Shown here one piece after another: positions 2,880-55,268 of a stretch of 64,000 nucleotides of DNA. Under the pieces are notes generated by a model. It was not told where the DNA came from. It made no database searches and saw only the letters and a list, made by a program, of their open reading frames with translations. The stretch comes from a virus, in IMG/VR virus record IMGVR_UViG_3300014720_000016; one strand, written 5' to 3'. How positions within the stretch are numbered: the stretch's first letter is position 1; each line of letters opens with the position of its first letter. A program made the position numbers and the translations under genes.

Positions 2880-3887
2880 TTAAACACCTATCTTCTTTAC
2901 TATGTCTCGTGCTGCAAGAAAGGCACACGATATTTTTCCAGGCAGTACCGCAATAATATTGTTTTCTTGAAAAACGGCTGTTCCACGAAAATCGTTGGTA
3001 TCCTTTTCCATCTTGGTCTTGATCGTGAGATACCTGCCTACAATCTTAAAGTCGTCAATATTTACCATTTTTGATGCATGAGATAAAATCTTTGCGTCTA
3101 TGTAGTTCCAGTCTTCCTCGTCAAGCTTGCCGCAGATCTTTTCAAGCATGCGGCTGCTAGAGCTTTTAAGAGCAGGGGTATAAGCCACAGAACTAATAGT
3201 GTGTATATTTTTACCGGCAGGATATATGCTGCAAAATAGCCCATCCATTATAGTTATAGCCTTGCCGTGCCACGAGTCAGGAGTCTCGGCCAGCAGCATT
3301 ACTGCAAGCTCAGACTTTGTCTGAAGGGATATGTCGGCACCGGGCTCGGTATAGGTACAGTTAATGACAAAATCGTATGAGCCGGTCAGATCAGCGGGAC
3401 GGCGATCTGCACATGTTATAACATTTACCGATGACAGCGCGATCTGCTCTGCAACTTTTTTGCGCAGCTCTAGTAGGTTAATCATCTTCTCCGGCACAAG
3501 CACTGTTAGCTCGATAGAAGACGGGTCCCTGACATGCTCCGGAGTAGGGACCTCGGTGAACTTTAGGTTGTGACTGGACATCTTCTCGGCGTACTCTTGT
3601 CCTGATACAAAACCATCAGAGTGTACACAGTAAAAATTCTCAGGAATGTCCTCTACTGCGCTCGGATATTCTGCGCAGAACTCATCAAATGATTCTTTTG
3701 CCTGTGAAATGGTAAAGTCGCACCTGGGGTAATGAAACCCAAGGTGCAACCGGTGTTGATTTGCTAGTATCGCTCCTTTGAGTATTTCCGGAGATCTCTC
3801 AAAGAGGTCTACCTGGACGCTCCGCCGACTCAGTTGCAGGGCAATCACACATCCGTAGAACCCGCCCCCGATGACTGCAACGCGCAT
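2880..3887 (-). CDS. FAD-dependent oxidoreductase
   Basis: VAVIGGGFYG, NQHRLHLGFHYPR, IMDG, GKI. Confidence 0.85.
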   Translation of the reverse strand: MRVAVIGGGFYGCVIALQLSRRSVQVDLFERSPEILKGAILANQHRLHLGFHYPRCDFTISQAKESFDEFCAEYPSAVEDIPENFYCVHSDGFVSGQEYAEKMSSHNLKFTEVPTPEHVRDPSSIELTVLVPEKMINLLELRKKVAEQIALSSVNVITCADRRPADLTGSYDFVINCTYTEPGADISLQTKSELAVMLLAETPDSWHGKAITIMDGLFCSIYPAGKNIHTISSVAYTPALKSSSSRMLEKICGKLDEEDWNYIDAKILSHASKMVNIDDFKIVGRYLTIKTKMEKDTNDFRGTAVFQENNIIAVLPGKISCAFLAARDIVKKIGV

Positions 3888-4576
3888 ACGGCCCTCACCT
3901 TTTCAACGTCAGTAGCAAAGTCTTTTGCCAGGTACTGCCGATATGCTGCTTCATCGCTACCCATCAGCGCCGCGACCTCGCGGTACTGAGCATCTACTTG
4001 CGCCTTCCCATTTGAAAAATGCAAGTGCTCAATGATTATGTCCGGGTAATACTTAATTATTGACAACGCCTCGCCAAGGTCTTTCCAAAAGTTATCCGCA
4101 TACATATGCTGAATGCACGGAGGAGCCATGTAGCCAAGAGCTTTTGTTATGGCAGTTCCAATGAAAACGGCGGTTGGCAAAGATTGCCTCTGCAGCAGGT
4201 CATTACCATATAGAATGGCAACTCCTTTCAAGGCATCGCCATCCCGCACAAAAGCCTCTTCCCAGAGCGGAGTTACAAAGCGGTGATCATCTCCAATAAA
4301 TAGCAGGTAATCATATTGATCCTGAAGCTGAGCGGCCATTAGATTTAGCTTTGGGACAAGGCGCACCCGGGGGTTCACGAGCTGCTTGGCGTAGCTCGGA
4401 ACTTCGTAGTTAGCCAGGTCGTCGTCATCCATGCCATAGTAAAAATCGGAGAGACCCGAAGTAGTGGCAAACCAACTGGCCGCGGCAGCTGCTGCACCTG
4501 AGTTGCGTATGCCGCCCGCGGATCGAGTTGGCATAATGACTGCAATTTTGCGAGAGTTATCTTTATCTTTCAACAT
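3845..4576 (-). CDS. Glycosyltransferase, GT-A fold (GT2-like)
   Basis: IAVIMPTR, MDDDD, FIGDDH, YGNDL, HMYADN, IEHLH. Confidence 0.8.
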   Translation of the reverse strand: MLKDKDNSRKIAVIMPTRSAGGIRNSGAAAAAASWFATTSGLSDFYYGMDDDDLANYEVPSYAKQLVNPRVRLVPKLNLMAAQLQDQYDYLLFIGDDHRFVTPLWEEAFVRDGDALKGVAILYGNDLLQRQSLPTAVFIGTAITKALGYMAPPCIQHMYADNFWKDLGEALSIIKYYPDIIIEHLHFSNGKAQVDAQYREVAALMGSDEAAYRQYLAKDFATDVEKVRAVCALQSSGAGSTDV

Positions 4577-4831
4577 GTTTGCCTATGCTCCTGGTTACTT
4601 GGCACATCGCACAAGCATGTATTTTTATAGGCATAGACCATTTATACAGGCAGGCTGCCACGCAAAAATAATTACCTTTTCCGCGCTGCCTGCGTATTTT
4701 GCGGGCTCCATTAAATCGCATCTTGTCAAATTTTTTATGCAATCTGTGCATACTGCGCTACTCTTATATTTTTCTGCCTGTCAATTAATCACTATTTTTG
4801 TGCGCCTTAGAGCGCTTGCTTGGGAGAAGGC

Positions 4832-5496
4832 ATGACTGCGCAAAATCACAGATTAGCTATAATTGTCCCTTACCGAGACCGGGCCGAGCACCTGGCTCAG
4901 TTTTTGCCACACATGGCATCATACCTCGCTAAACTAGAAAATCAGCATACGATTTATATAATCGAGCAGCTGGAGGGCAAGCCCTTTAACCGCGCAAAGC
5001 TATTGAATATTGGCTTTTTAGAATCCAAGGCTGATCATGATTATTTTATTTTTCATGACGTCGATATGCTGCCTCACGGAGTTGACTACAGCTATCGAGA
5101 GTGTCCAACTCACATGGCCTCTGGAGCTAGTCAGTTTGGTGGCACAATGCCGTATCCGGACTACTTCGGTGGAGTTACTATGTTCAATAGAGAGTCCGCT
5201 GAGCTAGTAAATGGTTTTAGCAATGAGTACTGGGGATGGGGTCTGAGGATGACGATCTGCTGCTTCGCTGCAAATACGCCAACATCCGGGTTGAGCGTAT
5301 CGCATCTGGTCAAATGACTTCTCTTTCTCACAAGAAAAGCACAGACCGAGAGGCACATAATCGAAACTTTGAGAAGCTTACGGCAATGAGGAACGGCGTC
5401 GCCGACTGGCGAAATCACGGCTTGAACTCCTGCTCATACACAGTCGTGGAGCGGCGACTAGAGGCGGGTGTGGTATTTATAAAGGTCAATCTATAA
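4832..5496 (+). pseudogene. GT7 beta-1,4-galactosyltransferase-like gene with a single-base frameshift (or sequencing error)
   Basis: IIVPYRDR, FNRAKLLNIG, FHDVD, YFGGV, NGFSNEYWGWG in one frame; GSEDDD continues in another frame across GGGG at 5238-5241. Confidence 0.85.
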
Positions 5497-5609: not shown

Positions 5610-6248
5610 TCATTGTGTTTCTCCAAATTCAGAAATCAGATGATCTCTTAACCTAATATACTCAGGGTCCTCTTTTGACCCATGACGGGAATAGTATGTC
5701 TCAAGATCCTGTCGCATTGTACGAGCATATATCTTTCTAATCATAGGGTCGTTTCGGGACGAGCTCGCACTTAGATGTGCGATGCCGCGACCATCAACAA
5801 TATCCCTGTGAAGTATGTCCATCGTTAGTCCGGCCGGACCCAGCCGATTATAAAGATCAAGATCCATCCAGGAGTTGCCAAATGCCTCGTCCCATCCTCC
5901 GATCTTGCGAATATTGCTGGGTACAACCAGCATTAAAAGATCAACAATCGCACAGTGCGCAACTATTGCGCAAGTGCTGTCCCGATTAAAGTTTAGTAGA
6001 TTTTCTATCGCAGTCCTGGATTCAAGGACTGCATCGAAGTGCGAGAACAGATAGGGCTCGTCATTTATCTTGAGTATCTCGTTCAGGCATGTGCTGAACT
6101 TCCTGGGCTTGTGAGAGTAGTGCACTCTGATATCGATAATATCCCCAGCGACAGAGTCATAGGATTCTATGGCCCTGTCCAGGAGGTCGCGCTGCGCGCC
6201 CACGTAGTTGAAATAAAGCGGGACCTTCTTCATCTGATTACTCTGCAC
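5610..6248 (-). CDS. Putative glycosyltransferase (GT2-like)
   Basis: SHFDA, IGGWDEAF...WMDLDLYNRL, IAHL. Confidence 0.6.
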   Translation of the reverse strand: MQSNQMKKVPLYFNYVGAQRDLLDRAIESYDSVAGDIIDIRVHYSHKPRKFSTCLNEILKINDEPYLFSHFDAVLESRTAIENLLNFNRDSTCAIVAHCAIVDLLMLVVPSNIRKIGGWDEAFGNSWMDLDLYNRLGPAGLTMDILHRDIVDGRGIAHLSASSSRNDPMIRKIYARTMRQDLETYYSRHGSKEDPEYIRLRDHLISEFGETQ

Positions 6249-7114: not shown

Positions 7115-7858
7115 TTACTTGCAAGGTCCTGGCGGGTCAGCAGGAGGAAATCTAAAGCAGCGCGAACGACGAAAAGATTCTGTGCCATAAGCAAAATCAT
7201 CATTAAATTGCTCGCGCGTGCTGCTTTGCAGGATTCTTAGATAACCGCTTAGTTCTGACATGTTTGGAATTCTGCCGTAGAAATCTAAAAACTGACGCGA
7301 TACAAATTGCTCATCGTTAAGTTCTTCGTACATAATACTGTCCTCGGTCTCGACCGTAGCGGGGGTAGGCTCCGCTTCGTCCTGAGTATTTGCAGAAGGG
7401 GCGGCGGGGCCCCCAACGATCTGCCCTCCTACTTGCGCCGCTCCTCCCGCGTCATCCAAGGTAATAGTACTCAACTGCGGCGCAGGACGCACCACAAGTA
7501 GTCCATGTTTTGCAAATATTTTGCCGTACAGCTCTTCTTTTGCCTCAAGAGGTACGCCGCTCGGCACACTAGGAAAATTTGTACAAAGGCAGCAGTTGAT
7601 TACTTTAGAGTAGCCTCTCGCCAAACCCTCGACCACTTTCCGAGGAATCTTGCGCGCCACCATATTATCGGGAATCCCAAAGTCAGAATTAAATAGAAAT
7701 GTCCTGACGGCTGGATGGCCCAGTAGATCGTTAGCTATTGCACGCGGCAGCATGACGTCGATCTGTATGCCCGGGTTGCACTCCCTTAGCGTTGATATTG
7801 GTCTGTGTAGGGCGCCTATGTCTGTGCCAGTGCCATAAATATAAAGCAAAATTCTCAC
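7115..7858 (-). CDS. Hypothetical protein: GT9-like N-terminus, Ala/Pro linker, DUF4214-like C-terminus
   Basis: MRILLY...DI...PISTLRECNPGIQIDV...LLGHPAV; EQFVSRQFLDFYGRIP..SELSGYL. Confidence 0.5.
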   Translation of the reverse strand: MRILLYIYGTGTDIGALHRPISTLRECNPGIQIDVMLPRAIANDLLGHPAVRTFLFNSDFGIPDNMVARKIPRKVVEGLARGYSKVINCCLCTNFPSVPSGVPLEAKEELYGKIFAKHGLLVVRPAPQLSTITLDDAGGAAQVGGQIVGGPAAPSANTQDEAEPTPATVETEDSIMYEELNDEQFVSRQFLDFYGRIPNMSELSGYLRILQSSTREQFNDDFAYGTESFRRSRCFRFPPADPPGPCK

Positions 7859-8247
7859 AATAGTGCCTCTATTTTAAAAACAAAACATTCTGTCCACTCT
7901 GGGTTATAGGAGAATGAATGAATAGTCGGAGTATGACCAAGCGCCCGAAATTCTTCAGACGCCCTGCTGTTACGATAAACAGAAATTACAAGTGACTCGG
8001 GCGAGTGCGGCCTAAGCTCGCCTGGCTCAGGACCAATGATCAATAAGCCTCGTCCCGACCAAAAAATCGAGCGCGCCCAACTACCACTGCGAAAAATCTC
8101 CATTTCACGAATTTCCCGCTTCAGCAGGGCGGCGCAGAACACAGCCAGGTCTATTCCGCAAACCGTACGCGGAAAAGAAGAGGTATTTGCCAGGTACTCA
8201 GAGAGTTCACCGGGACCCAGCAGATGGAGGCAATGGTCAAGCTTCAT
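7855..8247 (-). CDS. Hypothetical protein (MKLD-start group)
   Basis: Stop overlaps the next gene's start. Confidence 0.6.
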   Translation of the reverse strand: MKLDHCLHLLGPGELSEYLANTSSFPRTVCGIDLAVFCAALLKREIREMEIFRSGSWARSIFWSGRGLLIIGPEPGELRPHSPESLVISVYRNSRASEEFRALGHTPTIHSFSYNPEWTECFVFKIEALL

Positions 8248-8249
8248 CC

Positions 8250-8600
8250 CTATTATGTAACCTTATTAAGCAAGAAAGAGGACAAATAAGACAGACCAGT
8301 CATCTGAACAGAAGAACACATCAGAAGGTAATAAAAAAATGACAGAAGAAAGATGCGGATCATCAACGCAGGACACAGAAAGAAAGATGGCTAACACCGC
8401 TAGCAGACACTACAATCATAATAAAAAAAAAAAAACCTAAGACTACCCATCTGTTTACCTATGGAGTACGCTAAGGGTTGGAGGGATTTGGAGCCGCTCG
8501 CGGCTTGGAGGTTTTGGCGCATTGCGGAGTATTTTCACGGCCTTCTATCGTGCTGGTTTTGCCTGTTTTTCGACTAAAAACGACAAAGCAGAAACACAAA
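8250..8600. other. Strand-asymmetric non-coding region; candidate replication origin
   Basis: Left half A/C-rich with ACAGAAG(A)AAGATG-like repeats (8308, 8342, 8375) and an A13 run (8423-8435); right half G/T-rich with TTGGAG three times. Confidence 0.4.
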
Positions 8601-8601
8601 T

Positions 8602-8623
8602 AGCCGCCTTGTCTCGGGCGGCT
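8602..8623 (-). terminator. Terminator of the polymerase-like gene
   Basis: AGCCGCC...GGCGGCT stem followed by a T-rich tail on the minus strand. Confidence 0.5.
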
Positions 8624-8630
8624 GGCCAGA

Positions 8631-10361
8631 CTAAGATTGTTTTAAGCAGGGAGGACCTGTTGAGTACGTTGTCTTGCAGCACCCAAGTGCCGCGCCATAA
8701 TCGGCAGATATCTTGATTTCCGCAAAATGACTGACGGATGGAATGCGAATCTCTTCGGCCAGATCCAACCCCTTTGCCTCTAGGCGGGACTGGATGCCAA
8801 GCCGACTAAGCTCTGCGCTCATTACGCGCTGGCATTTCCGATAGAAGCGGCGCCCGATACGCGGCGACCGCGCCCAGACCGAAACCCCGTCATGACTGTG
8901 GACGGTTATGCACAAGTGCTTGCGGCTGTACTGACCTGCAATAGAATAGATTTTTTTAACGAGATCAGTTTCAACGGCCTGGCACTTTATGGCCAGCGAA
9001 CTGGAGTCTAGGGCTCCGGCCTCGCAGTGCGCTCGCATGCCATCGTAAATAGTGCGCAACAAGGAGGTCTCTGACCACAGATTGCCGAGTACAGTGACTT
9101 CGACTTCCTCTAGGCCAAGGTTGAGTAGGTCCATGGTAAATGCCCGCCGGGCAGCCGGGGCCTCCATGCCGAATTGCAGACTGTAGAGACTGGCCTTCAG
9201 CGCCTTCTTGGTCTTGCTCAGATCAATGCGCCTCTCAGGCAGGCGTAAGCTACGCGAGTCACCGCTGTTAAGCGAGCCGTTGAAGAGATAGGCGAGCCCG
9301 CAGGCATCCAGCTGGTCAGCAGCTTCAGAGCGGTCCTGCAGATCATATATGCGATCTAGCTTCACGCGCCACTCGTCAAAAATTTGATCCCAAATGGATC
9401 GGGATAGGTCTAGTCCCAGTCCAGCCTGCGCATTTAGGATGCTAAGGTGCATATTTGAGAAGTCAATTTCAAACCAGCTAGGAAACAGCTCATTACGCAA
9501 CCAGCCCGGCATGAATTGCAAGCTTTGACCAGTTGCAAAAACCCGGGGGCTGTTCTCGGATGGATCACGATAATGGGAGAAGAAGCCGTTGCCTAGCCCG
9601 TCTGCAACGGCTTCGCGCAGAACGGCGCGGTACGGATTACCACCGTATGCCCGGTCAATCTTGTGAAAAATGCGCTTTTTATTTGCGGCTGATCGTAGTC
9701 GCTCTGCTGGGAGAGAGTTCATGTAGCGCTGCACATGGTTCGTGGCCTTTGCAGCGACCGGCTGCTCATCACCTGTTGTGTCGTCTGCCGTGTACACGTC
9801 GTGCAGCGCAGCGAGTGCAACGAGATTCTGCCCCGTAGGCAGTAGCACTATTTGCGTTCCATTGGCGTTCGCAAAAATTGAAACACTAACCATGCCGCCG
9901 AGGCCGATGTTGTTCACGGCATCCCGGAGCATGCAGGCTGCACTGCTGCCACGCTTCCTGCGGATAAGGAATTGCTTTGCTCGCGCACCTTCCGATAGGT
10001 AGTCCTTGCGGGCGATCTGCTTGAAGCCGAGCGTGGCAGCAGCATAGAGAAAAACTTCTGATGCGGGGATCTTAACCGCCGCACCAGTAGTGGCAGCTTT
10101 GCTAGCGGCCAGCAGTATGCGGGTGGCAAATTCGGTGCCGATAACTGCAGCCCCTCGCCCGAATAGCGGGAACAGCTTCGCGATATTCTCGTAGAAAAAA
10201 ACAGACCGCGGAATGCTCCGCGGCCATGGTTGCAGACCCGTTTGGATTGACGCGACGACCTTGTCAAATGACTCAGTAGAGAAGGACATCGTGCCCTTCT
10301 TGCCGAGGTGCTTGTTAGGGTTCTTCGGACTAGCCAGTATTGGCAGCCATTGCGCGCTCAT
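8631..10361 (-). CDS. PolA-superfamily polymerase, TV-Pol-like (possible primase-polymerase)
   Basis: RVFATGQSLQ..P.WLR; motif A EIDFSNMHLSIL; motif B KASLYSLQFG; CQAVE; motif C HSHDGVSV. Confidence 0.65.
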   Translation of the reverse strand: MSAQWLPILASPKNPNKHLGKKGTMSFSTESFDKVVASIQTGLQPWPRSIPRSVFFYENIAKLFPLFGRGAAVIGTEFATRILLAASKAATTGAAVKIPASEVFLYAAATLGFKQIARKDYLSEGARAKQFLIRRKRGSSAACMLRDAVNNIGLGGMVSVSIFANANGTQIVLLPTGQNLVALAALHDVYTADDTTGDEQPVAAKATNHVQRYMNSLPAERLRSAANKKRIFHKIDRAYGGNPYRAVLREAVADGLGNGFFSHYRDPSENSPRVFATGQSLQFMPGWLRNELFPSWFEIDFSNMHLSILNAQAGLGLDLSRSIWDQIFDEWRVKLDRIYDLQDRSEAADQLDACGLAYLFNGSLNSGDSRSLRLPERRIDLSKTKKALKASLYSLQFGMEAPAARRAFTMDLLNLGLEEVEVTVLGNLWSETSLLRTIYDGMRAHCEAGALDSSSLAIKCQAVETDLVKKIYSIAGQYSRKHLCITVHSHDGVSVWARSPRIGRRFYRKCQRVMSAELSRLGIQSRLEAKGLDLAEEIRIPSVSHFAEIKISADYGAALGCCKTTYSTGPPCLKQS

Positions 10362-10405
10362 ACCTATCCTATCATTTTTCTAATTTTTACCAGACAGTGC
10401 GCGGC

Positions 10406-11017
10406 TTATATATGAGCTGAAATATATTTGTTGCGATGACAGGGCGCTGGGCCAAACGTCTTTAGTGCTTTAATGTGCTCTTCTGTTAAGTACCCGCTGT
10501 GATTGTTAAATCCGTAATCCGGATATTTCTCATGCAGTTCTTTACATTCTAAATCTTTAGCATGTTTGGCCAGAATAGATGCAGCGGCAATGCTGATGCT
10601 GATCGCATCTCCTTTTACTTGGCAGGTGTTGCGATGTTTATTATTCTTCAGGCAGACATTGCCATCGAAGCAGGTGACAAGCGGAGGTAGGTCGGCCAGG
10701 CCTGCGTCAGCGGCTTCGAAGCGAAGCCAATAAGGATTGCCCGAATTAATCTGGTCGACTGTGACTTCCCACAAGAACCACTGACAGCTGTCTTTAATCA
10801 GCTTAACTAGTTCTTCTCGCTGAGCGGATGTGGTTTTCTTGCTGTCTTTTATACCTGCCATCGATGGCAGAGTAGCGCTATTCTTTGGCCAGATTGTTGC
10901 GGCAACCCACATGCTCGCGCTAGCGCACCCATAACCGGATTCGTCGCAACCAGCAAAAAGCAAATCCTCAGACCAGGCCGAGGACTCGAGGACAAATGTT
11001 GGTTTTTGTTTACTCAT
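10406..11017 (-). CDS. rnhB: Ribonuclease HII
   Basis: AGCDESGYG, KDSKK, FDG, VKGDA..ISIAAASILAK, YPDYGF..HSGYLT.EH...GP...HR. Confidence 0.92.
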   Translation of the reverse strand: MSKQKPTFVLESSAWSEDLLFAGCDESGYGCASASMWVAATIWPKNSATLPSMAGIKDSKKTTSAQREELVKLIKDSCQWFLWEVTVDQINSGNPYWLRFEAADAGLADLPPLVTCFDGNVCLKNNKHRNTCQVKGDAISISIAAASILAKHAKDLECKELHEKYPDYGFNNHSGYLTEEHIKALKTFGPAPCHRNKYISAHI

Positions 11018-11096
11018 GCGGCACTGATGCCGCAGGAAAATGCATCAGACCTGTGGCACGCAAACCGGGCTATTACTTGTATTGCTGTTTAAACAA

Positions 11097-11703
11097 ATGT
11101 CACTTAAAAACCTTAGAGCTGCTGGTCGGAAGGTGGGCAAGAAGTTGTCGCACCATATCGCGACATCGCTTAAAAACTACAAGATCCCCGAGCTCGCTGA
11201 GCGCTACCCGGCCTGGCTTACCTCGCATGCTGCTATATGTAGAGGCCTTGTGGTCACGCAGCATCAGGGAGGCCGAAGAGATTCTATTGTGCGAACAGCG
11301 TGCTAGCTCATTTAATAACATCATTGCAAATACGGAAGGCGACGTAGTAAGCCTCGAAGCAAGCGCCAAGCATTCCGCAAAAGTCTTCCATGATGGCGCC
11401 GCATCGGCACACACAAATCACTTTATTTTTTTGCCAGAGATGGAGGCCAGGAAGGGCGCTTCTTTGGATGGGTCCCGTGATCGCCTGGAGCGCGCCTTCA
11501 AGGAAATAGGCGACGCTGGTGCACATGTATCAGTAAAAGATATAATGCTAATGCTTGCAACTCACGGCAAAGGAGGGCTGTGTAGGCACGGCGACAACTC
11601 ATCGCACACAGTTTTTTCAGTTGTGTTCCTGCCTACCGAGCGCGCCTTTATATATGGCAAGGGAAATCCCTGCTCTGGCGATTTTAGCATTTATCGCTAC
11701 TGA
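11097..11703 (+). pseudogene. C45 (Ntn-hydrolase) peptidase remnant with internal deletion and frameshift
   Basis: N-terminus MSLKNLRAAGRKVG in one frame; C-terminal GLPRMLL..RASSFN, SLEAS, AHTNHF, SRDRLER, LCRH, TVFSVVF in another; the catalytic Cys segment is absent. Confidence 0.6.
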
Positions 11704-11800: not shown

Positions 11801-12397
11801 TCAGGGCTGGGGCACGACGATGATTGCAGGGGCCACGCGGTTCACAAACCCCGCGCCGCCGATAGGGGCCGCGCCTGCGGGGAACGTCCCGGGCATCCCA
11901 GACGCATAGCTGCTTGCGACAGTCAGTGTATTTGCGCCTGTGCTTGATGCGGGAAGCCACCCGAGTACGCCTGCTGGGAAGTTGAGCGCCAGTCCAGTGA
12001 ACGCGCTGGCGTGAGCCCCTGTCCCGCCGTCCGTGTTCGTCACAAGCCAGTAAAGTTTGCCAGCGGCGAAGCTCTGCGCGACAGTTCGCAACACAGGCCC
12101 CAGCACCCCGTAGTTGATCGGCGTCGACGACTGCCAAATGCGATTGCTCGGATAGATGTCACGCTCGCTTGTGGCCTCGTAGACCGCTAGGTCGACGTTG
12201 GCCAAGCCTACCGTAGTGACACGAAGTCCGAAACTGGCCACGTTCAGCGGCAAGTCTCCGGTGAACCACGGCTGCGCGTACAGCGTGTTCGCGCCGCTCG
12301 ACGGATTCCCGGTTCCGTTCTCTGTGCGCGACAGATAGTTCTCGACGGTCAGACCCGCACTGCCGGGCAAGTGCATGTAGTCCCACGGCTGTACCAT
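11801..12397 (-). CDS. Paralogue 3 of a GC-rich cassette; putative beta-sandwich virion or receptor-binding protein
   Basis: QPWDYMH...PWFTG...FGLRV...LAVY...YPSN...LYWL. Confidence 0.7.
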   Translation of the reverse strand: MVQPWDYMHLPGSAGLTVENYLSRTENGTGNPSSGANTLYAQPWFTGDLPLNVASFGLRVTTVGLANVDLAVYEATSERDIYPSNRIWQSSTPINYGVLGPVLRTVAQSFAAGKLYWLVTNTDGGTGAHASAFTGLALNFPAGVLGWLPASSTGANTLTVASSYASGMPGTFPAGAAPIGGAGFVNRVAPAIIVVPQP

Positions 12398-27768: not shown

Positions 27769-30186
27769 TCAGGCTTCTGCGACTGGTACTCCGCCTGCAG
27801 AAAGCTTGAAGGCAAATCCGCCTTCAAGTGCATTCGACAGAACGGTGTCTACGGTCTTGGCGAAGATGAACTCCATCTCTTCGCGAACAACTGGTGGGAT
27901 ATCCGCAAGATCCTTCTCGTTGCGAGCGGGTAGGATGACGCGACGGATACCACCGCGATGCGCGGCAAGTACCTTCTCCTTAATGCCTCCGACCGGAAGA
28001 ACGTGGCCACGCAGCGTGACCTCTCCACTCATGGCCGTATCAGCGCGAACATTACGACCAGTCAGCAGCGAGACAAGTGCGGTCGTAATGGTTACGCCAG
28101 CCGAGGGACCGTCCTTTGGAATAGCGCCCGCCGGGAAGTGAATGTGTAGATCATTCTTATCCAAGAAGTGCTCATCCAGTGATCCGGCTAGCCCTAGGTC
28201 TACGGCCTTGCTGCGAATCCAGCTCATGGCAGCCTGAGCTGACTCCTTCATGACGTCACCCAGTTGACCAGTTAGGGTTAGCGAACCCTTGCCGCCCATG
28301 CGCGTTGCCTCGATAAACAGCAGATCTCCGCCAGCAGCAGTCCAGGCAAGACCGGTCGCAACACCCGGCAGGGACGTGCGCTCAGCTGTTTCGTTAAAGT
28401 AGCGCTCCGCTCCAAGGATCTTGTCTAGGCGCTCTACATCGACGACTACTTTGTCAAAAGTCTTTTCAGCCGTATTTGTTAGTGCAACATCTACTGCGAT
28501 AGAGCGACAGACGCCAGCCACTTCGCGCTCAAGGTTGCGAACTCCAGCCTCCCGGGTGTAGCTCATTGCGAGCTTCAGCAGGGTAGCGTCTGGAATCTCT
28601 ACATGGTCGCTTGAAATGCCGTGCTCACGCAGCTGCTTTGGCACAAGGTGCTGCCGGGCGATAGCGAGCTTTTCTTCAAAAGTATAGCCAGGAACCTCGA
28701 TAATCTCCATGCGATCCCGCAGGGGGGCAGGGATGGTGTCCAGCTGGTTGGCGGTGGCGATAAACAGAACCTTTGACAGGTCGTATGGCACATCAAGGTA
28801 GTGATCCGCGAACGTGTTGTTCTGCTCTGGGTCAAGAACCTCGAGGAGTGCGGCGGCGGGATCACCACGAACGTCATGACCTAGCTTGTCGATCTCGTCA
28901 AGAAGCACTACCGGGTTGCTTGTACCCGACTTCTTCATACCCTGGATAATACGACCGGGCAGGGCGCCGATATACGTGCGACGGTGGCCTCGGATCTCGG
29001 CTTCGTCACGGACGCCGCCAAGCGCAATACGATGGAACTTGCGACCAAGGGCATCGGCAATAGAACGGCCAAGTGAAGTCTTACCAACGCCAGGTGGGCC
29101 TACAAAGCATAGGATTGGACCCTTCATATCGCTCTTGAGCTTGCGAACGGCGAGATACTCGACGATGCGCTTTTTAATCTTTTCTAGACCGTAGTGGTCT
29201 TCGTCGAGCTGCCGTTGAGCATTGCTGATATCAAGATTGTCGGTAGAAACCTTTGACCACGGCAGGTCCGCGAGCCATTCAAGATATGTACGTGCAACGG
29301 TGTACTCGGCCTGGCTGGGCTGCATATTGCGGATACGGCGCAGCTCACGATTAGCGGCTTTCTCCGCATCCTCTGGCATATTGGCGTTGCGCAACCGGCG
29401 CTCAAGCTCTTCGATGCCGTTCTCATCGTCTTCGCGCTCGCCCAGCTCTTCCTTGATGGCCTTCATCTGCTGGCGGAGGTAGTAGTCGCGCTGCGTCTTG
29501 CTCATCTCGCCCTTGACATGCGAGTTAATCTTGTTGGAGATTTTGGTAACTTCGGCCTGCCGAGTAATTAGCTCAAGTACTCGCTTAAGGCGAACCTTAA
29601 GGTGCGCGGCTTCTAGTACTTCCTGCTTCTCTTCGATACCGGCGTCGATATTAGCCGTAATAAGATCAGCCAGATGGCCCGGGTCGCTGATGTTGTCCAG
29701 CAGCTGCTTTGCCATTACGGGCAGATCAGGGAGCATGTCGATGACCTCGCGAGCGGTCTCTTTTAGGTTGGCGGCGAGAGCATCTACCTCTACTTCTCTA
29801 GCGCCCTCGTCTTCGATAAGCTCGATTCGAGCACGCAGGAATGGATCGGTCTGCGTAACTTCCGCTAGGCGGAAGCGCGCAAGGCCCTCTACAACAACCG
29901 AAAATCCGTCTTTGCCAGTGCGAGTAAGCTTGATTACCCGCGCAACAGTTCCTACCTTATAGAGGTCCATTGGAGCAGGATCGTCAACCTCGGGGGACTG
30001 CTGAGCTACAATTGCAATAAGAGAGCTCTCTTCGATAGTGTCCTCAATAAGCCGAATAGTGCGAGCTCGGCCAATTGTAAGCGGCATTACTGCGCCCGGG
30101 AAAAATACGCTATTTCGCAGAGGCAGCAGCGGCAGATCCTCTGGAAGATCGCGTAGATCAAACTTGGGCTTGTTACTGAGTGTCAT
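27769..30186 (-). CDS. lon: ATP-dependent Lon protease (resembles myxobacterial LonD/BsgA)
   Basis: [45 protein letters not shown]; N-domain [26 protein letters not shown]. Confidence 0.97.
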
Positions 30187-31097: not shown

Positions 31098-32207
31098 TCA
31101 CTCATAATCTCTAATGGCGACAACATACGGAAATCGTGGTACGCCATCAGGCGTTAGGTTGAAGTATTTTACAGTAGCTAGTTTGCCGACTAGCTCGTCT
31201 TTGCCTGCCAGCAGGCCGCGCAAGTAGTCGCGGTCGCCCTTGATGTTCGAGTTGAACTCTGTGCCTGCGGCATTCTTGAAGAGCATGGACGCTGCCATTC
31301 CGGTCTTATTGCCTTCGCCCTCTACTACTCCCAAGATAGTGAATTCCTCGTCACGAAACTCTTTGCGCTTGAGCAGGCTGCGGCTGCGCTTGAACTCGTA
31401 GGGCGTATTTAGCCGCACCATTTGCCCTTCGTAGCCGTCGTTCATATACTTTTCGTATAGGGCGTCAAGTGCGGGTGCATCGGCAACCAGCTCAGTAGGC
31501 ACGCGGCGGATAGCCGGATGGTCTGGCAGGTTATCGAGTAACCACTGGTTCCGCTCAGAAAAGCGCATGGCGGGGTCTGCAACATCGTAGATCCAGTACT
31601 GAATAGTAGCAGCACTCTCTTTGAGATCAGCGCCGTTGGGCTTGGTCTTTTTTACAAGAGAGCAAATCTTGTTAAAATCATTTGCTAGTTTGTCGCAGTA
31701 AAGCTCGCCATCTAGTACCACATTTGGAAATTTTTGAAAAAGTCCAGCGAGGGCCTCACGGATATGAGGGGCACTGACGATAGGCTTGCCGTTGCGGGAG
31801 TTGATTGAATCCGCAGTAACGACGCACCGGATGCCGTCGTATTTGGGTTGGCTATAGATCGGGAATGCGATGTCGTCGGCATAATCGTCATAGCTCTTGG
31901 CCAGCATTGGCTCTACGAACTTGCGCTGATCAATGTCTGCGACATTTTCTCTGTAGCCTGAATCCAGCTTCTTTTTCCACTTAGCCTGGGCTTCCAGAAG
32001 CGCCTGCTGCTCGTCAGTTGTAGCGTTTTTGCGGCCAGTGTTTTTGCCGTGACAGACAGTCCACTCGGAAGTTATCTTTTTGCCATCTACCTGGCCCGAG
32101 ATTGTTCTAAAGCGTGGTCCCTGGACTTCGGCGATCCATACTTGGACGGCTCCTGTCTCGGTGCGTGCATACAGGGGAGCGAGCTGCGTAATATCGCAAT
32201 CTGACAT
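31098..32207 (-). CDS. ATP-dependent DNA ligase
   Basis: PMLA, QPKYDGIR, SRNGK, LDGELY, YEGQMVR, LLKRK, GVPRFP. Confidence 0.93.
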   Translation of the reverse strand: MSDCDITQLAPLYARTETGAVQVWIAEVQGPRFRTISGQVDGKKITSEWTVCHGKNTGRKNATTDEQQALLEAQAKWKKKLDSGYRENVADIDQRKFVEPMLAKSYDDYADDIAFPIYSQPKYDGIRCVVTADSINSRNGKPIVSAPHIREALAGLFQKFPNVVLDGELYCDKLANDFNKICSLVKKTKPNGADLKESAATIQYWIYDVADPAMRFSERNQWLLDNLPDHPAIRRVPTELVADAPALDALYEKYMNDGYEGQMVRLNTPYEFKRSRSLLKRKEFRDEEFTILGVVEGEGNKTGMAASMLFKNAAGTEFNSNIKGDRDYLRGLLAGKDELVGKLATVKYFNLTPDGVPRFPYVVAIRDYE

Positions 32208-35166: not shown

Positions 35167-36550
35167 CAGTGCTAAACCCTTTGCGCTTTACTTTCTTGCT
35201 TACCGTAGCAGGTTTTGCTCGCTTTGTCCTCGTTGCTCTGCGTGGCTTAGGCCCTGCTTCATCAGCCGGATAATCGCCTACGATGGGATCACTTTCTATA
35301 TCCGCAGATTCGGCATCATCCTCGTCTGGATGAAATGCCCGCAAATCATCAAGAATATCCCGGATATTTGAGGTCGGGCGCAGCTTTAGACGAAGGACTA
35401 CTTCCTTGCATTCTGCCGGAGTAAACCTGCGACCAGCCATTGCAGCTTTTACGTCGCTGCTGCTAATCTGGACATCCATGCTCTTGGCGTAAGACTGCAT
35501 GATCTCCAAGCATGAATCGGCGCTAGGCAGCGAGAACTGGAATTTCTCATCAAACCTGCCCGGTCGCAGCAGGGCTTCCCCAAGCTCCTCTGTGTCGTTA
35601 ACTGTGGCGAAGAAGGAAATCTTTGGGTACTTGCGCTTTAGATTTTCCGTAATGTAGAGGAACTTGCCCTCGTATTCGTCAAAGTCTACGCGGTCAAAAT
35701 CATCGAAAAGCACGATCTCGGGCTTAAGAATCGATAGTATCTGCTCAATCTCCTTGTTGTCAACGCTCTCTAGGAATGAGGCATCAACCTTTACCAGCCT
35801 ATTGCCAAATTCTTGCGAGATGCGCTCGCACCAGCTGGTCTTGCCGGTGCCAGGCTTGCCGTACAGCAAAAAGCTGCGGCTAATAGACATGCTCTTGGAA
35901 AGGTTGAGGTATGCAACCATGTCTGCAATAGGATGCGTGGACATGTCAGTATACTGGTTTGAGCCGGGCAGCGCAGAGATCTCTACCTCTACTTTGGAGT
36001 CACCAGAGCTTTTACCATACGAGAGATTGATGCCTGTTGGGTATTTGTTCCAAAAGAAATCGTGGATAAGCGCGTGGTCAAAATCTGGCGATAGCCAGTA
36101 TTGACTTACGATCTCTTCGGGGCTGGCAAAGACATCAAAGCGATCTACTTGTGCAGCCCTGTGAATCCAATACATTTCCGAGTTGTCCGCAACAGTCATG
36201 CGGATCATGCTCATGTTGTCCAGCTTCATAACTGTACCAACAGAGAAGACTGACTCTGCTCCAGACTTAATTAGGAGCTTGTGCAGTTCGCCGTTATGGA
36301 CTTTCAAGTTATGCTTCTCAACATAGAAGTTGATTGGATTCACAAACTCGATATTCAGGGCATCCGCAATTACGTTAGCACCAGCCATAACAGCTGATCC
36401 GATACTAAGCGGGTTGCGATTGTGGGCGAGGCTGGCAGTAATGTTAAGGACTTCCTGCCCCAGAGAAGAGGCCTGCTGAACATAAGGATGCCCGAGAACT
36501 TCGCCGGCCTTCTTCTTAAACTTGTCAAAAAAGCTCTTCTCTGACATCAT
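35159..36550 (-). CDS. AAA+ ATPase
   Basis: YGKPGTGKT, LFDDFD, TVN, ALLRPGRFD. Confidence 0.88.
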   Translation of the reverse strand: MMSEKSFFDKFKKKAGEVLGHPYVQQASSLGQEVLNITASLAHNRNPLSIGSAVMAGANVIADALNIEFVNPINFYVEKHNLKVHNGELHKLLIKSGAESVFSVGTVMKLDNMSMIRMTVADNSEMYWIHRAAQVDRFDVFASPEEIVSQYWLSPDFDHALIHDFFWNKYPTGINLSYGKSSGDSKVEVEISALPGSNQYTDMSTHPIADMVAYLNLSKSMSISRSFLLYGKPGTGKTSWCERISQEFGNRLVKVDASFLESVDNKEIEQILSILKPEIVLFDDFDRVDFDEYEGKFLYITENLKRKYPKISFFATVNDTEELGEALLRPGRFDEKFQFSLPSADSCLEIMQSYAKSMDVQISSSDVKAAMAGRRFTPAECKEVVLRLKLRPTSNIRDILDDLRAFHPDEDDAESADIESDPIVGDYPADEAGPKPRRATRTKRAKPATVSKKVKRKGFSTDG

Positions 36551-38118
36551 TCCTCCGACTTCACTGCGATCTCGCCACCGATTGCGCCTGATTGCAGAGC
36601 GGCCTTTAGTTTTTCCCAGGCGCCCATCCTGACAGCTTTTGCAAAATACGAGTCAATACTTTCTAGCATAAAACGCAAACTACCATCGAGCACATAGGTG
36701 TGAGCCCAGTCCTTATCTGATCTTACCGCTCGTCCATAGGCTTGTACAAGAGAATTTCTTGTTGCCATTTCATACAGCCCAGGCATAGCGCTATTTAGAG
36801 CTTCCATGTATTCAGACTTTGCCGGGAATGGTACCTTCATAATTACCTGGAAGCGACCCAGATCATCAGCCAAGTCCACGCCCTCCATCATAGATGGGCT
36901 TACTAGTATTGAGTCTGCTTGCTGCTTGTGATGCGCAAGTGCAATGCTTTTATTGGCGCCCTGCTCTACCCAGGTAAACCGGGGATTCTTGCCGTATATT
37001 GTCTGAAGGGCGCTGAAAACCCTGTAGTTAGAAGTGTGAATAATCCCACGCTGATTCCGATGCCGCTGCACAATGGCGTCAAGCAGCTGAATCGCCGGCA
37101 TATCCCTGCCGAATTTTGTAGCGTAATTTATCGTAGGAATATCTTTCGGAAAATAGATCGGCCTGTGCTCAACCGGGAAAGAACTCTCTAGATTGAATTC
37201 GACAGTCTTATCTGGATCTAATCCCAGGATCTTGGCAAAATTAACATCAATCGTAGCCGATAGGAAGTAAATCTTGCGGAATCGCGAAAGAAACTTGTGA
37301 GCCATCGTGGCAGGGTAGATGGGCTTGATCTGGACCTTTTCGTTTTCGGTATCGACATAGAAGTCGCCGGGCAACCGTGCCTCCTGGAGAATGGCGCCTA
37401 CCCGATCAGAGATCTGCTTGCACTGCTCCAGAGTCTTAGAGTCTGAAGACGATTCAGCCCGCATGCCTGCAGCAGTCTTAACCCGCTTGAGCCAATCAAC
37501 GTAGTTTGTTTGATTGGGCAAGTCGCGGATTTTCAGAAGGTTGAAGATTCGTTTTGTGGGAATTTCTAGAGAATAGAAATCCAGAACCTTGTCGATGAAG
37601 TTGTGGGCCTCGTCAAGCACAATAGCGCCGCTCGTAAAGCCGCTAGAGAAAGCCAGATCGTAGTTAAGAATACCGCCAGATGTATGTGGCAGGGCGTACT
37701 TCTTTTTGTAGTATTCGCACTTGTTATTCTTGGCACAGCTCTGCCGCAACTCTGGCGGAGTTTTCTCAGGGATGTCGTACTTAGACTTGGCGATTTGTAA
37801 CAGCTTCCTGCTGGCACAAGGCGCATCTCCGGTAGATCCACCGGAGATCGAACAGCTGTAGTTACTCTTGCCTTTTAGTACAAACTCAGAATTAAATTGG
37901 GAGGTTGAGGCGTACTGATCTTGCAGCAACTTTGTGGCAGTAAGGACGTGGGTATGGTGCTTGCGCGAAAGTGCCACTGCCAGTCCGCTTTTCCCTAGCC
38001 CTGTAGGCGCCCGTATAATGAAGTACTGCTTATCTTCATTCTCATCCAGCTTGTCCAGCAAATCCTCGATACCTGGCCGATAGCTAGGAAACGGGTAGTG
38101 ACTTTTGAGCGGTTCCAT
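36547..38118 (-). CDS. DinG/YoaA-like SF2 helicase
   Basis: APTGLGKS, LQDQY, Cys cluster, DEAH, LSAT, EGVDL, QAYGRAVRS..D. Confidence 0.9.
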   Translation of the reverse strand: MEPLKSHYPFPSYRPGIEDLLDKLDENEDKQYFIIRAPTGLGKSGLAVALSRKHHTHVLTATKLLQDQYASTSQFNSEFVLKGKSNYSCSISGGSTGDAPCASRKLLQIAKSKYDIPEKTPPELRQSCAKNNKCEYYKKKYALPHTSGGILNYDLAFSSGFTSGAIVLDEAHNFIDKVLDFYSLEIPTKRIFNLLKIRDLPNQTNYVDWLKRVKTAAGMRAESSSDSKTLEQCKQISDRVGAILQEARLPGDFYVDTENEKVQIKPIYPATMAHKFLSRFRKIYFLSATIDVNFAKILGLDPDKTVEFNLESSFPVEHRPIYFPKDIPTINYATKFGRDMPAIQLLDAIVQRHRNQRGIIHTSNYRVFSALQTIYGKNPRFTWVEQGANKSIALAHHKQQADSILVSPSMMEGVDLADDLGRFQVIMKVPFPAKSEYMEALNSAMPGLYEMATRNSLVQAYGRAVRSDKDWAHTYVLDGSLRFMLESIDSYFAKAVRMGAWEKLKAALQSGAIGGEIAVKSEE

Positions 38119-53976: not shown

Positions 53977-54342
53977 CCTACCGTCATCTAACCGTAGCGG
54001 TACCTCTATGCCAGAATTAACTGTTCCTTCGTAGTTCGAGGCCCAGTAAAACGCCGGAAAAGACAGGGTAACTTTCGCCAAGTCTGGGTTATCGCCGTTG
54101 CTAAAAAAAGAGAAAAATACTACCCAGGTAGATGGCTCTGACTTGATGAAGTTGGGAGTGACTATTGTGCCATCTTTATCTACCCCGATGGCGATCCTGC
54201 CGCCCTCTCCGGGCTCAGCCACTCCCCACCTATTCATCTGAGCACCGCTTACTGCCGCGTACAGCTCATCTGCGTGTTCTGGGGCAGTAAATGTGTCGAT
54301 AAATAGCTTAAGATCCCTGAACAGCAGGTCTGCCAGCTTCAT
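53947..54342 (-). CDS. Hypothetical protein (MKL group)
   Basis: MKLADLLFR; ATGA coupling. Confidence 0.6.
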   Translation of the reverse strand: MKLADLLFRDLKLFIDTFTAPEHADELYAAVSGAQMNRWGVAEPGEGGRIAIGVDKDGTIVTPNFIKSEPSTWVVFFSFFSNGDNPDLAKVTLSFPAFYWASNYEGTVNSGIEVPLRLDDGRLELIKAAGK

Positions 54343-55268
54343 ATACGAATACCTAGCTTATCAAGATGGGGGATAAATCCGAGATTTTTGCCTTTGCATT
54401 CCATTTCGATGTCGCACTTTCCAGCGGCATAATAAGCCTTCTGGTAATCGGGGATCGTATGGATCGCCCAACTATGTGCTCGGCGCTCGGTAAAGTTGCC
54501 GCCTTCAAGGCCTGGCTCTGTGTTGCTAAGATGTTGTAGCGGAAGTATGCCAGCCGGCCAGGTAGAGGCCGCTGCAAGCATTGCCTCCTCGCCACTCATA
54601 CCGCCGTCATTGAATACATGATGATGAGAATCAAAAAGGATGGGTACCCCAGATGCTGCGCTAATTGGCATCAGGTCTGCTACTGACCAGCAGTTCTCAT
54701 CATTTTCGAGGGTCAAGCGTGATCGCACATTGTGTGGCAGAGCGTCAATGCCACGAAGTAGGCGATCTGGAGAGCCGCGTTTGCCGCCGTGAATATTTAT
54801 TGCAAAATTGGTACTAAGGGCAGCGCCAAGATTGTCCATAACCATGGCGTGATAAGTCAGTTCCCTGATAGAATTTTGTACTACGGTATCAGAATCGGAA
54901 TTAAGCACTACAAACTGGCCGGGATGCATAGTTAGGCGCAGGCCTGCGAAAGCAGATTGGGCTGATTGCAGAGCGGTGATTGCTTCGCCTACCAGTTCAC
55001 TGTAGCGCGCATCTTCTGCAACCTTATCGAACAGGGGCAGGAGCGTGCTGCCTACTCGAAACAGCCCCACTCCTGAATCCCGCAAGTCGCGCGTAATTGC
55101 AGAAATGCCAGCGATATTACCAAGCCAAACACTGCGAATATGCTCGGCGCTATACTCTCCGGCCTGGAATCGCCCTAGCTGCAAAGCTCGCTCGCCAATT
55201 TTGTTAACGAACTTTGAGCCAGTTTTAGTCTTCTTTTCTTCAAGCCACTGACAGCATACTCCGAGCAT
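54339..55268 (-). CDS. uvsE: UV damage endonuclease
   Basis: FR.GS.LLP, RLTMHPGQFVVLNS, EL.YH, NIHGG, RLTLENDE, FDSHHH, QHLS, RAHS, EMECK.K. Confidence 0.93.
   Translation of the reverse strand: MLGVCCQWLEEKKTKTGSKFVNKIGERALQLGRFQAGEYSAEHIRSVWLGNIAGISAITRDLRDSGVGLFRVGSTLLPLFDKVAEDARYSELVGEAITALQSAQSAFAGLRLTMHPGQFVVLNSDSDTVVQNSIRELTYHAMVMDNLGAALSTNFAINIHGGKRGSPDRLLRGIDALPHNVRSRLTLENDENCWSVADLMPISAASGVPILFDSHHHVFNDGGMSGEEAMLAAASTWPAGILPLQHLSNTEPGLEGGNFTERRAHSWAIHTIPDYQKAYYAAGKCDIEMECKGKNLGFIPHLDKLGIRI

Follow-up and report, generated by a model that had tools for sequence, protein, structure and literature searches.

Large phages can carry divergent accessory family-A (PolA) polymerases, described as divPolA1 and divPolA2 (Yutin et al. 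2024, PMC11348598). The TV-Pols, another divergent group, were reported never to be linked to nucleases (Iyer, Abhiman and Aravind 2008, PMC2579912), and the CcPol-MP and PolA-SSB primases belong to SCCmec-like elements (Bebel et al. 2020, PMC7581432; bioRxiv 10.1101/2022.12.02.518924); CcPol, the one characterised primase of the superfamily, uses deoxynucleoside triphosphates (dNTPs; PMC7581432). The locus we investigated lies on the minus strand of a 64,000-nt stretch (the window) of the virus record IMGVR_UViG_3300014720_000016, which is part of an uncultured giant phage genome. It encodes a 576-aa polymerase behind rnhB, the gene for RNase HII. This polymerase and its relatives are a new clade of accessory PolA enzymes without exonuclease domains, distinguished by a new, invariant partnership with RNase HII and by conserved single-copy DNA signals next to the gene. 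The reading that we tentatively favour, while stopping short of calling it probable, is that the pair substitutes for Pol I in the phage, with the PolA-like enzyme acting as a DNA polymerase that extends the 3'-OH ends made by RNase HII.

The open reading frame (ORF) of the polymerase contains, in order, the five PolA-fold motifs listed in an earlier note on this DNA: R273-x-F275...S280-L-Q282, E298-I-D300-F-S-N-M-H305, K389...Y393-x-L-x-F397-G398, Q461..E464 and H490-D491-G492. In an AlphaFold2 model built from a 14-sequence alignment (mean predicted local distance difference test, pLDDT, 77), residues 200-537 adopt the right-hand fold of a family-A polymerase, with an RRM-type palm, fingers and a short thumb of two helices between residues 228 and 258. 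Aligned with VIA-align, the model matches Klenow with Z 13.8 (root-mean-square deviation, rmsd, 4.4 Å over 269 aligned residues), Pol theta with 13.5, Pol nu with 13.1 and T7 DNA polymerase (DNAP) with 12.4; T7 RNA polymerase (RNAP) follows at 9.9, mitochondrial RNAP at 9.2 and N4 RNAPII at 7.2, and the scores of the family-A polymerases stand well above those of unrelated entries. Foldseek gives the same assignment (E 3e-5 in the PDB, E 3e-7 in BFVD), and the palm fold on which the earlier note had staked its reading is present. No exonuclease or helicase domain was found in the 576-aa protein, as that note had also held.

At the level of sequence the relationship is distant. The family profile aligns weakly with E. 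coli Pol I in hhalign (E 7e-4, probability 26%); the motifs are nonetheless in register. D705, E710, R754, K758, F762, Y766 and G767 of Pol I fall on D300, H305, K385, K389, Y393, F397 and G398 of the phage enzyme, TGRLSS..PNLQNIP of Pol I pairs with SPRVFATGQSLQFMP (R668, Q677 and P680 with R273, Q282 and P285), and D705-YSQI-E710 pairs with D300-FSNM-H305; D491 of the HDG motif (motif C) was matched to D882 by motif. In this register the metal-binding Asp, the O-helix Lys and the two aromatic residues are all present. R273, D300, W324, K385, Y393, E464, D491 and G492 are invariant in 21 diverse family members, and because the catalytic residues are among the positions conserved across all 21, the polymerase is very probably active. 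The protein has no match in Pfam or PHROGs. The curated PolA model PF00476 does not match it, and one of the 21 family members reaches E 0.0016 with this model; sequence searches of the PDB with phmmer and with a profile in hmmsearch gave best E-values of 2.2 and 0.26, both to unrelated proteins. Its fold and motifs make the polymerase a member of the family-A superfamily, although it fails the curated sequence model.

What sugar the active site would accept can be inferred from its residues. To our knowledge, the single-subunit RNAPs known so far all keep a Tyr, which senses the 2'-OH, at the position of Pol I Y766 and T7 RNAP Y639, and the steric-gate position of T7 RNAP is a Gly (G542). In place of this signature of Tyr and a small residue, the phage enzyme has F397 (F, Y or C across the family) and the bulky H305 (H, Q or W across the family). 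The position of Klenow F762 is an invariant Tyr (Y393) in the family, and T7 DNAP likewise has a Tyr there. Because of Phe397, Tyr393 and His305, and because DNAPs outrank RNAPs in the fold search, the active site appears to be that of a DNA polymerase rather than an RNA polymerase, and the enzyme would use dNTPs. The same observations disfavour the proposal of the earlier note that the polymerase lays an RNA primer. An active site that combines His as the steric gate with Tyr in place of F762 and Phe in place of Y766 is unusual for family A and is of interest for polymerase engineering.

The part of the protein that precedes the polymerase core is a domain in its own right. Residues 45-195 fold confidently when modelled alone, as an alpha/beta domain with pLDDT 82, and the PDB holds no match to this model above Z 4.8. 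The list of weak matches consists mostly of winged-helix DNA binders (MarR, RepA, Pi, RepE, ORC) at Z 3-4.4, values that are not significant and give no evidence of kinship; alignments with the mitochondrial and N4 RNAPs begin at residue 51 of the polymerase, but have an rmsd of 7 Å. A remnant of a 3'-5' exonuclease was sought among the structure matches of this domain and none appeared, which is an absence only. The disordered N-terminal peptide M-S-A-Q-W-L-P-(I/V)-L-A-S-P-K (within 10239-10361, minus strand) keeps the pattern W-x-x-x-L-x-x-P-K/R down to relatives of 22-27% identity, and the protein ends in an (S/A)TGPP peptide whose GPP is kept even in those relatives. The conservation of these terminal peptides suggests that they are probably docking peptides for partner proteins. 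We rejected a reading of the N-terminal AQWLPIL as a clamp-binding motif because its Gln is not conserved across the wider family.

A large protein database holds 14 close relatives of the polymerase (49-95% identity), and there are 22 matches, down to about E 1e-3, among sequences reduced to one representative per 50%-identity cluster. None of the 14 close relatives and none of the 10 scanned representatives out of the 22 carries a Pfam domain, and the approximately 30 look-alike clusters in the ESM Atlas are all unannotated. No relative was found by tblastn in 50,697 GenBank phages with the polymerase of the window (P0001), P0018 and P0032 as queries, and none of the polymerase in 185,579 species genomes; the window itself has no near match among the GenBank phages, where a megablast of the 50,697 genomes returned nothing. 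The loci of the relatives were taken from IMG/VR and JGI metagenomes and are numbered with the letter L. Two of them, L005 and L038, are truncated, and among the distant relatives (P0017-P0036) the gene context was read at L037 and at the truncated L038. One relative, IMGVR_UViG_3300035212_003113 (G001; 371,675 bp), has terminal repeats and is rated complete; it contains L003 and was used for the genome-wide tests.

The upstream gene, 10406-11017 on the minus strand, encodes a genuine RNase HII (PF01351, E 1.2e-24). In an alignment with the enzyme of T. maritima, the D-E-D-D catalytic residues and the Tyr that senses the junction are retained, and the substrate-recognition motif GRG reads GYG in the phage protein. 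RNase HII lies directly upstream of the polymerase in six of six informative loci (the window, L001, L002/L003, L004, L006 and L037), so the linkage to rnhB that the earlier note had proposed to follow in related phages is kept wherever the upstream DNA is visible. In L037, whose polymerase is 27% identical, the polymerase begins at 5833, before the end of RNase HII at 5836; because the two genes overlap, they are probably translationally coupled. All relatives found, down to this one at 27% identity, share the order rnhB, polymerase, hairpin terminator and long spacer, and of all features only the pair of rnhB and polymerase is common to the entire family as sampled. In the window the polymerase follows RNase HII on the same strand after a gap of 44 nt, co-oriented and downstream as the earlier note had described. 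The gene upstream of rnhB runs divergently, so that rnhB and the polymerase resemble a self-contained two-gene unit. We infer a physical or functional coupling of the polymerase to RNase HII, and the biological setting in the same way. A literature search found no paper naming both jumbo phages and RNase HII.

The two members of the pair have diverged at very different rates. In relatives whose polymerases match at 49-91% identity, RNase HII reaches 82-94%, and it is conserved far beyond every neighbouring gene; between the window and the complete relative the identities are 89% for RNase HII, 49% for the polymerase and 56-67% for neighbouring genes. By the Nei-Gojobori method, RNase HII shows nonsynonymous divergence (dN) of 0.06-0.12 with synonymous divergence (dS) of 1.1-2.2, and the polymerase dN of about 0.5 with dS saturated. 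As judged from these sequence comparisons, RNase HII is under very strong purifying selection.

In the direction of transcription, the locus consists of the following features:

10406-11017, minus strand: rnhB, RNase HII of 203 aa, the first of the two genes in the unit (PF01351)
8631-10361, minus strand: the 576-aa divergent family-A (PolA-fold) polymerase without exonuclease, P0001 (from the ORF, the model, Foldseek and hhalign)
9777-10229, minus strand: N-terminal alpha/beta domain of the polymerase, residues ~45-195 (from the domain model)
8751-9764, minus strand: polymerase core (palm, fingers and short thumb) containing motifs A, B and C, residues 200-537 (range from VIA-align)
8634-8750, minus strand: disordered, variable C-terminal tail with the (S/A)TGPP end peptide (pLDDT <50)
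8592-8624, minus strand: GC hairpin (8602-8623) followed by a T-rich tail to 8592, resembling an intrinsic terminator (from a terminator scan)
8472-8591, minus strand: A/C-rich spacer with CTCCAA-type words (from the spacer alignment)
8456-8471, minus strand: 16-nt motif GCGTACTCCATAGGTA, family form GCGTACNNCNTAGGTA (from the spacer alignment and the motif count)
8248-8455, minus strand: pyrimidine-rich variable spacer or leader, T/C on the gene-sense strand (from composition)
7855-8247, minus strand: 130-aa ORFan, the first gene past the spacer (from synteny)

The polymerase gene points into an ORF-free stretch of 383 bp (8248-8630), which by a crude greedy ORF tiling is among the longest in the window, in keeping with the earlier note. 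We aligned this spacer between clades whose synonymous sites are saturated, and despite this saturation two blocks are conserved: the hairpin with its tail, and the 16-nt motif. The hairpin block (consensus CAGCYGCC...GGCGGCTWTTTGTGTTT) is nearly invariant between clades and starts 7 nt past the polymerase stop codon; its tail is single-copy in the window and in G001. The motif lies 109-120 nt downstream of the hairpin block. It has one exact copy in the window, one in each of five loci and one in the whole of G001, where matches with two mismatches are at the level of a reversed-pattern control. The stretch between the blocks, 8472-8591, is conserved only inside the close clade. At the motif the A/T composition switches, and beyond it lies a polypyrimidine/polypurine tract. 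In the clade of the window this pyrimidine-rich tract measures 208 nt in the window and approximately 310 nt in L004 and L005, with its composition kept and its sequence and length not kept. L001-L003 have no such tract, and there the motif is found about 20 nt before the ATG of the next gene, placed as a promoter or leader element of that gene would be. In L037 the spacer is 355 bp long; its hairpin is comparable, it also contains a GGTAAGAGAG element, a run of T residues and a CT-rich stretch, and GCGTAC is missing.

The core of the motif, ATAGGTA, is presumably similar to T7-type TATAGG and yeast mitochondrial ATATAAGTA start sites. Rfam gave no match in the spacer or elsewhere in the window, which has no tRNAs; a sigma-70 scan found no promoter in the spacer, and the recurrent two-box promoter of the phage, which has a different sequence, is not found there. 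Iteron-like words of the ACAGAAGAA type exist in the window, are not conserved in L004, L005, L003 or L037, and were treated as repeats of low complexity. Near the polymerase stop the motif recurs as a partial direct copy (8655-8668; TACAGCTTA in L003), probably by chance: the copy does not keep its place among the relatives, and in the window these letters simply encode the conserved YSTG peptide.

The complete relative places the polymerase beside a replisome of bacterial type. G001 encodes a DnaE-type Pol III alpha subunit (E 5e-68), a DnaG-type primase and a DnaB helicase, and Pfam found no PolB, PolA, FEN or RNAP beta subunit in this genome; a Pfam search of G001 for a T7-like RNAP also gave no match, a result that is uninformative in having no positive control. 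The PolA-like enzyme is an accessory polymerase beside this replisome. With its own DnaG, DnaB and DnaE, this relative does not require a dedicated extra primase. The replisome genes of G001 lie 30-160 kb from the locus. The cumulative GC skew of the genome rises monotonically and tracks gene orientation, with no switch of the kind expected of an origin at the locus. Separately from this trend, about 15 kb of G001 (345-360 kb), with a negative GC skew and 64% GC where the background has about 50%, looks compositionally foreign.

In bacteria, RNase HII, Pol I and ligase act together in ribonucleotide excision repair and primer removal. Because the pair alone is conserved throughout the family, we suggest a similar succession for the phage, in which an end made by RNase HII is extended by the PolA-like enzyme and sealed by ligase. 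In phage DNA, RNase HII would cut at RNA-DNA junctions, at embedded ribonucleotides or within RNA-DNA hybrids. The polymerase would extend the 3'-OH so created with dNTPs, by gap filling or strand displacement, and the ATP-dependent ligase of the phage would seal the remaining nick. Beside the DnaE-type replicase of a giant phage, the pair would then stand in for host Pol I and RNase H, with tasks in repair synthesis, ribonucleotide excision repair and the removal of Okazaki primers. The hairpin may be the terminator of the operon, and the 16-nt motif a signal that starts or regulates the transcription unit behind it. The presence of ligase, UvdE and an XPD/DinG-like helicase in the window is consistent with a Pol I substitute, as is a G001 genome in which DnaE, DnaG and DnaB are accompanied by no PolA, PolB or FEN detectable with Pfam, and as is the place of the motif shortly before the next gene in L001-L003. 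Several observations pull the other way. A 5'-3' nuclease or flap endonuclease that could remove the displaced strand was not detected in G001 with Pfam, and RNase HII by itself leaves one ribonucleotide. Plain gap filling leaves the conserved extra N-domain and the terminal peptides unexplained, and it likewise does not account for a single-copy motif and hairpin in 372 kb; the recurrent two-box promoter differs and is absent here. The polymerase is also evolving fast (dN about 0.5), next to an RNase HII that is nearly unchanged.

A family-A polymerase extends ends made by RNase H also at the ColE1 origin and at the mitochondrial heavy-strand origin, and the locus could be an initiation module specific to an origin, modelled on Pol I and RNase H in the first case or on Pol gamma and RNase H1 in the second. 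A spacer transcript or R-loop would be trimmed to a 3'-OH by RNase HII, the PolA-like enzyme would start DNA there, with its N-domain recognising the 16-nt motif, and DnaB, DnaG and DnaE would take over; alternatively the polymerase itself would prime with dNTPs, like CcPol-MP. We consider this possible and on balance unlikely. The hairpin and motif, conserved under synonymous saturation and each unique in the window and in G001, fit it, as do the composition flip at the motif with the polypyrimidine/polypurine tract that follows, the presumed likeness of the motif core to T7-type and yeast mitochondrial start sites, the long spacer, which L037 also has despite a different downstream gene, and the extra conserved N-domain, whose winged-helix and plasmid Rep neighbours at Z 3-4.4 are not significant. 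A-family polymerases are moreover capable of primase action (PMC7581432). However, the cumulative skew of G001 is monotonic, the replisome genes are distant, the pyrimidine-rich tract is missing from the L001-L003 clade and the iteron-like words are unconserved. Neither a helicase nor an OB-fold gene was found adjoining the polymerase, whose 130-aa neighbour is an ORFan; the motif in L001-L003 looks like a 5' signal of the next gene, and a hybrid with pyrimidine-rich RNA would be weak. By the usual signs of an origin, then, there is no skew switch in G001 and there are no conserved spacer repeats, yet there are two conserved single-copy elements. We give somewhat less credence still to a cis-encoded form of the module, in which the polymerase would use its N-domain to recognise the single-copy GCGTAC-N4-TAGGTA site beside its own gene and, with RNase HII, would provide the first DNA primer by R-loop extension or de novo priming before the handover to DnaB, DnaG and DnaE. 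The origin-priming unit proposed in the earlier note is supported in part, by the stand-alone PolA fold without exonuclease, the linkage to rnhB and the selected single-copy spacer elements; it is weakened by the monotonic skew, the unconserved iteron-like words and the primase that G001 already has.

A further possibility is a general polymerase for repair or lesion tolerance, filling for example gaps after UvdE incision, with rnhB adjacent because both would belong to a shared DNA-maintenance operon and no direct hand-off would take place. The lack of an exonuclease, the truncated thumb and the quick divergence are as in specialised repair polymerases, the window encodes UvdE, ligase and an XPD/DinG-like helicase, and divPolA2 has likewise been proposed as a repair DNAP (PMC11348598). 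However, UvdE and ligase lie more than 20 kb from the polymerase, and the pairing with rnhB is invariant, with overlapping genes at 27% identity; the invariant pairing and the overlap in L037 argue for a coupling tighter than loose co-regulation, and we regard this explanation as improbable. Least credible to us, with only a slight chance of being right, is a minimal single-subunit RNAP of the N4 RNAPII or divPolA2 type that would transcribe from the motif, either for the downstream operon or for primer RNA. RNAPs do appear in the fold list (T7 at Z 9.9, mitochondrial at 9.2 from residue 51, N4 RNAPII at 7.2), motif C is HDG without the Glu of DNAPs, the single-copy motif is presumably similar to start sites of T7-like and mitochondrial type, and no other single-subunit RNAP was detected in G001, though by the Pfam test that had no positive control. 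Against this, DNAPs outscore RNAPs in the same search, the T7 Y639 position is Phe397 (F/Y/C in the family), the steric gate is His, Gln or Trp and not Gly, and neither a specificity loop nor an N-terminal domain of RNAP type was detected (best Z of the N-domain 4.8).

Around the unit, the window encodes GroEL, topoisomerase II subunits, RIIA, ATP-dependent ligase (31098-32207), lysozyme, UvdE (54339-55268, minus strand; PF03851, E 2e-44) and the XPD/DinG-like helicase (36547-38118). The phage GroEL (23623-25335, minus strand) matches phrog_5725 with E 7e-124, and close to its gene an 805-aa AAA+ protein (27769-30186, minus strand) matches phrog_15585 with E 7e-292. The gene divergent from rnhB, at 10996-11703 on the plus strand, is of the acyl-CoA:6-aminopenicillanic acid (6-APA) acyltransferase / C45 peptidase type (PF03417, E 3e-9). 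There is an overlap of 22 nt between its ORF and the annotated start of rnhB, and in L006 the tblastn match to this gene is split into three pieces. The 130-aa ORFan on the other side of the spacer is syntenic in L001-L005 and has two copies in G001 (11893-12279 and 13073-13459 of L003). Its family carries an invariant C-terminal IHP-x-x-Y-x-PEW-x-x-CFV motif, and it has no match in Pfam, the PDB or the ESM Atlas. In L037 a staphylococcal-nuclease-like (SNase-like, OB-fold) gene, unrelated to the ORFan, takes its place past the spacer, and the genes before RNase HII (3616-5204) encode a protein with a treble-clef zinc finger and DUF2726, and an R2K-clade ATP-grasp enzyme.

The DnaE/DnaG/DnaB replicase context of these phages resembles a bacterial cell without Pol I. 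If the polymerase and RNase HII do substitute for Pol I and RNase H, then giant phages carry their own system of primer removal and ribonucleotide repair. If instead the locus is an origin module, it would represent a new way of starting phage replication and a new site-specific polymerase; in the cis-encoded form, initiation in a phage would be ColE1-like or mitochondria-like and carried out by a new polymerase family.

Compared with the bacterial set of Pol I, RNase HII and ligase, and with the RNase H and Pol I of the ColE1 origin, the phage likewise combines a type-2 RNase H with a family-A polymerase, here in one operon, and has a ligase and a DnaE-type replicase in the genome. Unlike bacterial Pol I, the phage enzyme has no 5'-3' or 3'-5' exonuclease domains and no match to PF00476, and it has an extra N-domain, terminal peptides and single-copy DNA elements alongside its gene. 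CcPol-MP is similar in being a stand-alone truncated A-family polymerase with an active site of the dNTP type, for which a start of DNA synthesis on a mobile element has been proposed or shown. CcPol, however, is a near relative of housekeeping Pol I and has retained E710 and F762, where the phage enzyme has His and Tyr. It also needs an adjacent small OB-fold partner and sits in a helicase operon; neither an OB-fold partner nor a helicase was found beside the polymerase here.

The resemblance to TV-Pols, which the earlier note had proposed, extends to a minimal PolA core without exonuclease, a two-helix thumb, the beta-hairpin Arg (R273), the two catalytic Asp, a fingers helix with the pattern basic-x3-K, and a viral setting. 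In the fingers helix, the phage enzyme has KxxxK (K385, K389) instead of the RxxxK of TV-Pols; the fingers Asp D380 is nearly invariant in the close clade only. The N-domain is alpha/beta, whereas that of TV-Pols is all-helical. A D5-like helicase is neither fused to the polymerase nor encoded next to it, and a resolvase, integrase or transposase is likewise missing from its surroundings, which consist of RNase HII, the ORFan, glycosyltransferases and tail-fibre-like genes. The conserved link to a nuclease, RNase HII in six of six informative loci, is contrary to what was described for TV-Pols (PMC2579912). The name TV-Pol-like therefore holds for the minimal architecture without exonuclease, and neither the D5 helicase or recombinase context nor the absence of a nuclease linkage carries over.

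The nearest concept to this polymerase clade is that of divPolA1 and divPolA2. These too are highly divergent PolAs beside a regular replicase; their thumb is truncated or replaced, their palm motifs are intact and they have no active exonuclease. The divPolA1 phages are large and bear GroEL/GroES, as this phage does. A gene annotated as DNA polymerase family A in an immuto-phage, which we take, without confirmation, to be divPolA1, has the motif A sequence D-F-x-x-x-H-L, with a His at the steric gate as in the phage studied here. However, the hhalign comparisons (E 0.003 over 34 columns and E 0.12, with probabilities of 0.5% and 10.7%) indicate no significant relationship, and the hidden Markov model of the family had no match in MG592441 and MW353176, genomes with divPolA1/2. 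The N-domain is different, and an invariant RNase HII partner and downstream DNA elements were not described for these enzymes. Accessory divergent PolAs of phages have been recognised only recently, with divPolA1 and divPolA2 in 2024, and none has been characterised; the clade reported here, with its invariant RNase HII partner, its DnaE/DnaG/DnaB context and its two adjacent single-copy DNA elements under selection, makes the function of such an enzyme testable.

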